The notes beneath the pieces were generated by a model. It was given only the letters and a program-made list of their open reading frames with translations. It was not told the origin of the DNA and ran no database searches. 231 nucleotides of DNA from Escherichia coli (GTDB taxonomy: Bacteria; Pseudomonadota; Gammaproteobacteria; Enterobacterales; Enterobacteriaceae). The translations under genes and the position numbers were made by a program. Positions 1 to 231 of this stretch are shown here, piece after piece; positions within the stretch are counted from its first letter, which is position 1; each line of letters starts with the position of its first letter. The DNA lies in NCBI RefSeq assembly GCF_003334785.1, contig NZ_QOWV01000094.1; one strand, written 5' to 3'.

Positions 1-15
1 ATTTTCCCGTTAACA

Positions 16-41
16 CGCGGGCAAGTAATCCGGGGCCCGCG
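16..41. repeat. GC-rich inverted repeat / stem-loop: CGCGGGC (16-22) pairs with GCCCGCG (35-41), 12-nt loop aagtaatccggg
   Basis: Seven consecutive G:C pairs verified base by base. Lies 10 nt downstream of the minus-strand small-ORF stop codon. Not followed by a U-tract on either strand, so it is not a canonical intrinsic terminator. Confidence 0.45.
26..41. repeat. copy 1 of a ~15-nt direct repeat motif TAATCCGGGGCCCGCG (minus-strand reading CGCGGGCCCCGGATTA)
   Basis: First 8 nt (TAATCCGG) are identical to copy 2 at 141-148; the GC-rich remainder matches with 1-2 indels. Spans the loop and 3' arm of the 16-41 hairpin. Confidence 0.4.
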
Positions 42-51
42 ATACCACGCT

Positions 52-129
52 CTATCGGGCGGGACGGCGCCGGTGCTCAGAGAGCAGCCTTTCCAGCTCA
101 GCGATGCGAATGAGGTATTTCTGACTCAT
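52..129 (-). CDS. small ORF, 25 aa hypothetical peptide MSQKYLIRIAELERLLSEHRRRPAR (ATG at plus 127-129, TAG at plus 52-54)
   Basis: ATG-initiated ORF in the same minus frame as the upstream ORF. GC by codon position across 52-129 is about 65/42/69%. The N-terminal 13 codons use common enteric codons and read like an amphipathic helix. The C-terminal tail uses rare codons (AGG, CGG, CCC, CGA) and an amber stop, and no Shine-Dalgarno is visible upstream (aaaaacggccATG), so it may be a fortuitous ORF or a gene remnant. Confidence 0.3.
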   Translation of the reverse strand: MSQKYLIRIAELERLLSEHRRRPAR

Positions 130-138
130 GGCCGTTTT

Positions 139-144
139 TATAAT
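139..144 (+). promoter_or_regulatory. perfect TATAAT hexamer on the plus strand with no convincing -35 partner
   Basis: Plus 139-144 reads TATAAT. At 15-18 bp spacing the upstream hexamers (tatttc, atttct, ttctga) match TTGACA at 3/6 or less, and no TG extended -10 is present (ttt precedes). It is the reverse complement of the AT-rich stretch used for the minus-strand call, so the two are not independent. Confidence 0.15.
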
Positions 145-155
145 CCGGCCCGGCG
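141..155. repeat. copy 2 of the direct repeat motif TAATCCGGCCCGGCG (minus-strand reading CGCCGGGCCGGATTA)
   Basis: See copy 1. Spans the loop and 3' arm of the 130-150 hairpin and lies 4 nt from the TAA stop of the upstream minus-strand ORF. Confidence 0.4.
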
Positions 156-159
156 TTTT

Positions 160-231
160 TTACAACATTGTCAGTGCGTTAAGGCGGGATGTTTTTGGCT
201 GACGCCAGTCCAGCTTATCGAGGAGCATTGC
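160..231 (-). CDS. 3' end of an ORF of unknown function (5' part lies beyond the window edge); C-terminal residues ...AMLLDKLDWRQPKTSRLNALTML, stop TAA at 160-162
   Basis: Minus-strand frame open from position 231 to TAA (plus 160-162). No Cys and no very rare codons. GC by codon position across 160-231 is about 54/38/58% (pos1/pos2/pos3), a coding-like pattern for this frame pair. An in-frame ATG at plus 226-228 means the ORF could instead start inside the window as a 22-aa peptide; this cannot be resolved without upstream sequence. Confidence 0.4.
   Translation of the reverse strand, partial: AMLLDKLDWRQPKTSRLNALTML

Follow-up and report, generated by a model that had tools for sequence, protein, structure and literature searches.

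The 231 nucleotides analysed here, in the following called the window, lie inside an ISEc47 element of the IS66 family and contain, on the minus strand, the 3' end of tnpB, a 30-nt spacer and the start of tnpC. The element is a copy from which 505 bp of tnpC have been deleted. We conclude that the reading frame shared by tnpB and tnpC is coincidental and that the junction hides no fusion gene, and for this reading as a whole we estimate a probability of about 0.9. The junction has the ordinary, already known gene layout of an IS66 element, seen here in a decayed copy.

On the minus strand of the window, a small open reading frame of 25 aa covers positions 52–129, and an upstream open reading frame covers 160–228 and runs off the window at 231. 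The stop codon of the upstream frame (TAA, 160–162) and the ATG of the small one (127–129) stand in one frame, 33 nt apart, and the 30 nt between them (130–159) make up ten codons, all of which are sense codons. The minus-strand translation of the window, AMLLDKLDWRQPKTSRLNALTML*KTPGRIIKTAMSQKYLIRIAELERLLSEHRRRPAR*..., shows that the original prediction described this arrangement accurately as two open reading frames in the same frame with no other stop between them. For its explanation, the prediction offered a coincidence, a once longer gene inactivated by a nonsense mutation, or an extension by stop-codon readthrough, and its preference was for a genuine intergenic spacer. This preference is upheld by our analysis, the fusion and pseudogene options are not, and the identity of the two genes as tnpB and tnpC as well as the 505-bp deletion had been overlooked.

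A deleted copy of ISEc47

The window is part of the chromosome of E. coli TW10722, an ETEC strain (record NZ_CP035841.1), where it occupies positions 5947–6177 of the locus L002. It matches thousands of records from E. coli and other enterobacteria, with 8401 matching places in the E. coli collection, and the annotations found under the matches are "IS66 family accessory protein TnpB" and "IS66-like element ISEc47 family transposase". Positions 160–231 (minus strand) hold the last 23 codons of tnpB together with its TAA and are 100% identical to tnpB of ISEc47 (WP_000624688.1). The full TnpB protein comprises 116 aa, of which residues 9–106 match the Pfam domain TnpB_IS66 (PF05717) with E = 1.8e-34. 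The transposase TnpC of the intact ISEc47 reference (WP_001744949.1) has 537 aa, starts with MSQKYLIRIAELERLLSEQAEALRQ... and contains the Pfam domains LZ_Tnp_IS66, zf-IS66, DDE_Tnp_IS66 and DDE_Tnp_IS66_C. A search for solved structures of TnpB or TnpC found none.

The organisation of the element around the window is that of an IS66 element. The genes tnpA and tnpB share 4 nt both in L001 (tnpA 4012–4446, tnpB 3665–4015), an intact ISEc47 on plasmid p120899_76 that was used as reference, and in L002 (tnpA 6453–6887, tnpB 6106–6456). The element ends are GTAAGCG, and both start with GTAAGCGT. The 8-bp target duplication is CGGCACTG for L001, which is located in traX, and CGTTTATA for the deleted copy in L002. 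GTAAGCG inverted repeats together with an 8-bp duplication reportedly define the IS66 family, a definition that is ascribed to ISfinder and to Han and co-workers in 2001. Every IS66-defining feature that can be tested here is present. As in the relatives IS66, IS679, ISEc8, ISEc23 and ISKox1, the gene order is tnpA-tnpB-tnpC with a short non-coding gap in front of tnpC, and the Pfam domains, the GTAAGCG ends and the 8-bp duplication are accompanied by 100% DNA identity to ISEc47 outside the deletion. Unlike these elements, the TW10722 copy is without 505 bp of tnpC, the region of the leucine zipper and the zinc finger, and no transposase is possible from it. Of 5426 E. coli genomes, 3019 carry ISEc47, which is itself an intact, multi-copy element. 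Three open reading frames, tnpABC, are described for IS66 elements in the literature (PMC6778807).

The deletion is seen in a direct comparison with the reference. Window positions 1–77 correspond to L001 3001–3077 and positions 74–231 to L001 3579–3736, the two pieces overlapping by 4 bases. This overlap at 74–77 marks the deletion junction and is a 4-bp microhomology that reads TGCT on the plus strand and AGCA on the minus strand. Perfect matches to the window are split into two pieces with 505 bp between them and span 736 bp of the record; the one exception is NZ_CP035841.1, where the match is contiguous. The same break appears when L002 is aligned against L001, and L002 otherwise aligns with ISEc47 from end to end. 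As query for the junction, we used a 42-mer centred on the break, each side of which alone is too short to seed a match. Of 5426 complete E. coli genomes, a single one contains this query, in the TW10722 chromosome, and no plasmid does. The deletion is confined to this strain.

With the segment between the two TGCT repeats, tnpC codons ~19–186 have been removed, including the coiled-coil and zinc-finger part of the protein. The frame of tnpC is shifted because 505 is not a multiple of three. At 76–129 (minus strand), starting from the ATG at 127–129, the window holds the authentic tnpC codons 1–18, MSQKYLIRIAELERLLSE, which are the start of WP_001744949.1. These 18 codons are joined out of frame to codon ~187, and the product of this frameshifting deletion is a run of seven out-of-frame codons, HRRRPAR, with a TAG at 52–54 (52–75, minus strand). 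Over the same DNA, the intact gene reads ...VEAPAPSRPIERGIAG... in another frame. Positions 1–73 (minus strand) belong to downstream tnpC, approximately nucleotides 562–634 of the 1614-nt gene, which no longer lie in the frame set by the start codon. In the PGAP annotation of NZ_CP035841.1, tnpB ends at window position 160, the spacer contains no CDS, and 1–73 is listed as 'IS66-like element ISEc47 family transposase, incomplete, missing N-terminus', a feature that ends at the junction. The small open reading frame was also considered as an independent small protein and rejected, as it consists of the tnpC N-terminus and frameshifted codons; for annotation, this means that the 25-codon frame should not be called a gene. 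An open reading frame on the plus strand (128–202, 24 aa), antisense across the tnpB–tnpC junction, is without support. In Rfam, the window gives only a sub-threshold match to a snoRNA, with 17.6 bits compared with a gathering score of 47.

The TW10722 chromosome contains eight matching places, an intact copy among them. As both GTAAGCG ends and the 8-bp duplication have been kept, the deleted copy is a non-autonomous derivative that shares its genome with intact copies. A defining trait of the family is transposition that depends on all three gene products. Judged from its sequence, the deleted copy should be inactive alone and could be mobilised in trans. The finding originally submitted matters little in itself: it describes the standard gene junction of an insertion sequence that is very common, in a copy that is dead.

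The reading frame shared by tnpB and tnpC

Intact ISEc47 has the same TAA, the same 30-nt spacer and the same ATG in the same frame, and therefore the question of the frame concerns the whole element. With shuffled spacer bases, ten codons contain no stop with a probability of 0.69, and multiplication by 1/3 for the frame gives 0.23. The junction was surveyed in 80 loci from different species, and the 60 loci with a long downstream tnpC were counted. Relative to tnpB, tnpC is in frame in 24 of these loci, in +1 in 16 and in +2 in 20. The in-frame class is the largest, a preference that is not significant (chi-square ~1.6) and that comes from phylogenetically related loci. Further in-frame stops occur in the spacer of 8 of the 24 in-frame loci, and the layout without an extra stop is found in 16 of 60 loci (27%), compared with the 23% expected by chance. 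The length of the spacer ranges from 16 to more than 130 nt, and even in closely related Burkholderiales elements it is either 29 or 30 nt, a difference of a single nucleotide. A tnpB stop is present in all 60 of these diverse loci from many genera; TAA, TAG and TGA are all in use, with no consistent pattern. As all three frames and many spacer lengths occur across the family, the shared frame is incidental. With 0.23 expected and 0.27 observed, the coincidence considered in the original prediction is borne out.

The spacer at 130–159 evolves as non-coding DNA. In five close relatives, 9 of its first 17 positions vary without a bias for codon position, and TATAAA is unvaried. It is not conserved as coding sequence in orthologues, a check that had been suggested together with the prediction; relatives keep the stop, and the spacer behind it differs in length. 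With its length and frame varying in the family, the element indeed has a true intergenic spacer at this site. We conclude that TnpB and TnpC are, with high probability, made as separate proteins.

The lengths of the proteins agree with this. TnpB is a stand-alone family of 12,961 clusters at 50% identity (E ≤ 0.001) with a full length of ~115–120 aa, and among the best 150 cluster representatives there is no protein of the size of TnpB–TnpC. All of the 20 aligned TnpB members end 10–15 residues past the DWR motif, as the protein in the window does. TnpB homologues thus end at the same place, at ~115 aa, which speaks against a fusion. A database search with the concatenated translation had been proposed as a further check. 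With TnpB, spacer and TnpC joined into one query, the search does return continuous homologues of 664 aa, but these are single-base stop-loss variants and represent neither the ancestral nor the normal state. The clusters P0001 and P0002, which have exactly 664 aa, are the top two matches, P0004 and P0017 are truncated versions, and P0050 comes from Citrobacter. Each of these fused clusters has 1–5 member sequences, compared with 10,721, 5,236, 6,034 and more members (>20,000 sequences) for the clusters of separate TnpC. In the fused genes, the stop is changed by one base, from TAA to CAA in L003 and from TAA to GAA in L004. Other proteins in which both Pfam domains are found are chimeras produced by deletion or nesting. 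Being one base away from the norm and occurring in such small clusters, the fusions represent sporadic mutants and a derived state. The natural 664-aa proteins indicate that some copies at least tolerate a fusion.

Programmed readthrough of the tnpB TAA, resulting in a 664-aa TnpB–TnpC fusion with a role in transposition comparable to the fusions in IS1 and IS3, is very improbable in the light of these data. For such a mechanism one can cite that tnpB and tnpC are in frame with no second stop, in intact ISEc47 as well, that 16 of 60 loci share this layout, and that stop-loss fusions exist in databases, so that a fused protein is not immediately purged. Against this, neither the frame (24/16/20) nor the spacer length is conserved, sister elements differ by one nucleotide, and additional in-frame stops interrupt 8 of the 24 in-frame loci. 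The spacer shows no third-position bias, and what is conserved in it are two hexamers. The stop is UAA followed by A and not a leaky UGA or UAG context. TAA is the least leaky stop codon in E. coli, and programmed readthrough typically relies on UGA or UAG followed by 3' sequence that stimulates it. The family survey, the evolution of the spacer and the rarity of fused proteins, in clusters of 1–5 sequences as against more than 20,000, lead us to reject this option of the original prediction.

The comparison with IS1 and IS3 points in the same direction. The fusion transposases InsAB' and OrfAB also arise from two consecutive open reading frames of an insertion sequence that are joined to give a longer protein. 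Their synthesis depends on programmed −1 frameshifting, for which the overlap of the open reading frames, a slippery site and the frame relation are conserved and required. In ISEc47 and the IS66 family, by contrast, the frame relation is not conserved, the genes are separated by a spacer without overlap, and frameshifting is not used according to PMC3469429. That text, citing Han et al. 2001, describes three IS66 proteins made via translational coupling without a frameshift fusion, and three separate proteins are also given in PMC6778807.

Still more improbable is that tnpB and tnpC were once a single gene and that the TAA is a recent inactivating mutation. The continuous 664-aa homologues at the top of the matches to the concatenated query would fit such a history. 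The stop, however, is present in 60 of 60 diverse loci and in intact ISEc47 with its multiple copies in more than half of the E. coli genomes counted above, TnpB exists as a stand-alone family of ~115 aa in 12,961 clusters, and the fused forms are one-base derivatives of the separate genes. With the stop universal and the fusions derived, the nonsense-mutation pseudogene is rejected. What has made a pseudogene of this copy is the loss of 505 bp inside tnpC and not the TAA.

Promoter-like signature in front of tnpC

The only potentially new point that the sequences suggest is a conserved promoter-like signature at tnpC. On the minus strand of the window, TTGTAA (165–160) is followed by 17 nt (159–143), TATAAA (142–137), 7 nt (136–130) and the ATG (129–127). 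TTGTAA consists of the last leucine codon of tnpB and the stop and is a putative −35 hexamer; TATAAA, 7 nt upstream of the tnpC ATG, is a putative −10 hexamer. The TATAAA of ISEc47 matches a −10 element at 5 of 6 positions, with the final T absent. In the consensus scan of the window, neither an intrinsic terminator nor a consensus promoter was called, the latter because TATAAA is without this highly conserved final T.

The signature was surveyed in 45 non-redundant IS66 junctions aligned on the tnpC ATG. Conserved in front of the ATG are T or A at −12, A at −11 and −10 (32 and 28 of 45 loci, respectively) and C at −1 (32 of 45), together with a T-rich patch near −35, and the rest of the spacer varies. 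In 28 of 45 loci, a TAnnnT motif ends 5–8 nt ahead of the tnpC ATG; the corresponding figures are 1.8% for random positions, 3.2% for other ATG trinucleotides and 2.5 ± 1.5 of 45 for local shuffles (maximum 10 in 2000 shuffles), where p-values overstate independence because the 45 loci are homologous. The arrangement TTGACA-N16–18-TATAAT is matched at at least 8 of 12 positions in 22 of 45 loci versus 1.3% of control positions, and the best spacing of the hexamers is 17 nt in 34 loci. Only four of the loci have a Shine-Dalgarno-like 4-mer. In an alignment of 12 elements, both hexamers are invariant and the 17 nt between them vary freely.

This pattern makes it possible, at odds that we place somewhat short of even, that the spacer is a conserved internal sigma-70 promoter of proteobacterial IS66 elements. 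Such a promoter would fire at the A of the tnpC ATG and give rise to a leaderless tnpC mRNA without Shine-Dalgarno sequence, and the transposase would be made without reliance on the transcription of tnpA and tnpB. The signals for tnpC expression would then lie in the spacer, with a −35 element of sigma-70 type overlapping the leucine codon and stop of tnpB. The in-frame spacing of 30 nt would be a mere consequence of promoter geometry (17 + 6 + 7), and sister elements with a gap of 6 nt have 29 nt and are out of frame. If true, the model of three proteins made by translational coupling would have to be revised, and the element would possess a built-in means of keeping transposase levels low. 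Confirmation would change the view of expression control in a large family of insertion sequences.

Leaderless mRNAs are known from lambda cI, transcribed from P_RM, and from tetR of Tn1721, and they are made from most genes in Deinococcus and from many in Actinobacteria. The combination of TAnnnT and a missing Shine-Dalgarno sequence is a signature used to predict leaderless genes. The IS66 junctions resemble leaderless bacterial mRNAs: a TAnnnT −10 hexamer stands 6–7 nt upstream of the AUG, position −1 is a pyrimidine, and a Shine-Dalgarno sequence is missing, a signature seen in 28 of 45 loci. A difference is that the hexamer of ISEc47, TATAAA, has no final T. For Deinococcus deserti, PMC4007540 gives 60% leaderless mRNAs. 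Among the papers searched, none connects IS66 with leaderless transcripts, and the K. pneumoniae supplementary tables, consulted for transcription-start evidence, contain no IS66 entry.

The spacer also contains a hairpin, located at 130–150 on the minus strand, in which GGCCG (150–146) and CGGCC (134–130) enclose an A/U-rich loop of 11 nt and the 3' arm adjoins the ATG. The original prediction had pointed to a hairpin in this region. The pairing of GGCCG with CGGCC is real, and the hairpin is weak when taken alone: the 71-nt fold has z = −1.58, with 14 of 200 shuffles folding at least as well. Among close relatives, a single compensatory change is found, from G-C to A-T in L003/L005. Family-wide, folding of the upstream regions is slightly above that of shuffles (mean z = −0.70, p = 2e-4) and has no common register. 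A common covarying hairpin was rejected, as the positions of the arms and the loop sizes differ among elements.

Located beside the ATG, the hairpin may limit internal initiation on read-through transcripts, or it may couple translation of tnpC to that of tnpB. The spacer could in this way act at the RNA level instead of as a promoter, with hairpin and A/U-rich loop mediating either tnpB–tnpC coupling and re-initiation or an S1-mediated, Shine-Dalgarno-independent initiation on the tnpABC mRNA. We regard this as rather unlikely, even though it matches the translational coupling of the published IS66 model (PMC3469429, citing Han et al. 2001). It is also consistent with the excess folding of the upstream regions, in roughly half of which the 3' arm adjoins the ATG, with the compensatory pair and with the absence of a Shine-Dalgarno sequence. 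However, the hairpins share neither register nor loop size, and the one in the window is not significant. In the strongest conserved signal, 17 nt separate two hexamers, the ATG follows after another 6–7 nt and position −1 is a C, which is the geometry of a promoter and not of a helix. In addition, the distance between motif and ATG is fixed, whereas the distance between motif and tnpB stop varies from 19 to more than 100 nt, which is hard to square with a coupling linked to termination.

The promoter and the RNA-level mechanisms are not mutually exclusive. A role of the hairpin on read-through transcripts would be compatible with the published coupling and would leave room for the promoter. 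Part of the conservation in the spacer could be explained by an RNA-level hairpin or the A/U-rich loop. The −35-like TTGTAA is in most elements also under coding constraint as leucine codon and stop; in L050 and L051, TTGTAA is kept though the tnpB stop, a TGA, lies 7 nt upstream.

Sequence signals upstream of tnpC

A sigma-70-like signature is conserved before tnpC, at a fixed distance to its ATG, both on the minus strand of the window (127-165) and in the IS66 loci of the family survey (L005-L084). In IS66 elements, the order is TTGTAA or TTC(C/A)C(G/A), followed by 17 nt, TAnnnT, a further 6-7 nt and C-ATG. A Shine-Dalgarno sequence is absent in nearly all of these elements. This combination of a promoter-like signature at fixed distance with the near-absence of a Shine-Dalgarno sequence suggests, at the level of sequence, that the tnpC mRNA is leaderless. 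No report of either the signature or a leaderless tnpC mRNA was found in the literature searched.

For two loci of Noviherbaspirillum galbum (L050 and L051), we find the motif TTGTAAAC kept in non-coding DNA, about 37 nt upstream of tnpC. Here, tnpB ends earlier, with a TGA located 7 nt upstream of the motif. The persistence of the hexamer beyond this TGA argues for its conservation for a reason other than Leu-stop coding.

In the alignment of the tnpB-tnpC junction of 12 elements, the conserved boxes in columns 3-8 and 23-28 resemble each other. Burkholderiales elements have GTAAAC in both boxes; in ISEc47, the pair reads GTAAAA...ATAAAA. The boxes form a direct repeat with a distance of about 23 nt, which could also be a candidate tandem binding site for a regulator, e.g. 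the HTH protein TnpA. A further conserved motif, GGATTC(C/A)C(G), recurs some 30-40 nt before tnpC in the long spacers of Rhodobacterales-type elements (L011, L016, L019, L031, L032, L036, L041, L043, L058, L077 and L084). In many cases, TTTTGCTATnnT comes next, which is an extended -10-like TGn element; the motif itself might represent a protein-binding site or the -35 region. A plus-strand ORF of 24 codons (MAVFIIRPGVFYNIVSALRRDVFG, window 128-202) runs antisense over the tnpB-tnpC junction; it is without support and probably spurious.

Spacer hairpin and stop-loss copies

The spacer hairpin (window 130-150) shows a compensatory change. Its arms are GGCCG/CGGCC in ISEc47 and GACCG/CGGTC in the equivalent hairpin of one fusion-bearing locus (L003) and of an ISEc47 relative (L005), with a G-U intermediate in the second fusion-bearing locus (L004).

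In naturally occurring copies that have lost the tnpB stop, TnpB and TnpC are encoded as one continuous protein of 644-664 aa (P0001, P0002, P0004, P0017 and P0050); each of these proteins is represented by 1-5 sequences. The TAA is changed to CAA in L003 and to GAA in L004 (1849-1851 in both), and the protein P0050 carries W at the position of the stop. The ISEc47-like copy in L004 (GCA_003009915.1) is flanked by opposite-strand fragments of other IS66-family elements (274-759 and 3499-4995), and their presence on both sides indicates nested or adjacent insertions.

A deleted copy in TW10722

In tnpC, 505 bp are lost internally between two TGCT repeats (window 74-77, corresponding to 6020-6023 of the TW10722 locus L002; 3074-3582 in the intact plasmid-borne ISEc47, L001). 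Among the 5426 complete E. coli genomes searched, this deletion occurs only in TW10722, and it had no plasmid match. With both ends and the 8-bp target duplication CGTTTATA retained, this copy could be a non-autonomous element that is mobilisable in trans. It lies inside an island (L002 1-4900 and 6900-12042) that carries, among others, hha and genes for zinc-ribbon proteins, for an inovirus-type Gp2 protein and for a toxin-activating acyltransferase, as well as a truncated ShlB/FhaC-family gene and a frameshifted GIY-YIG nuclease gene.
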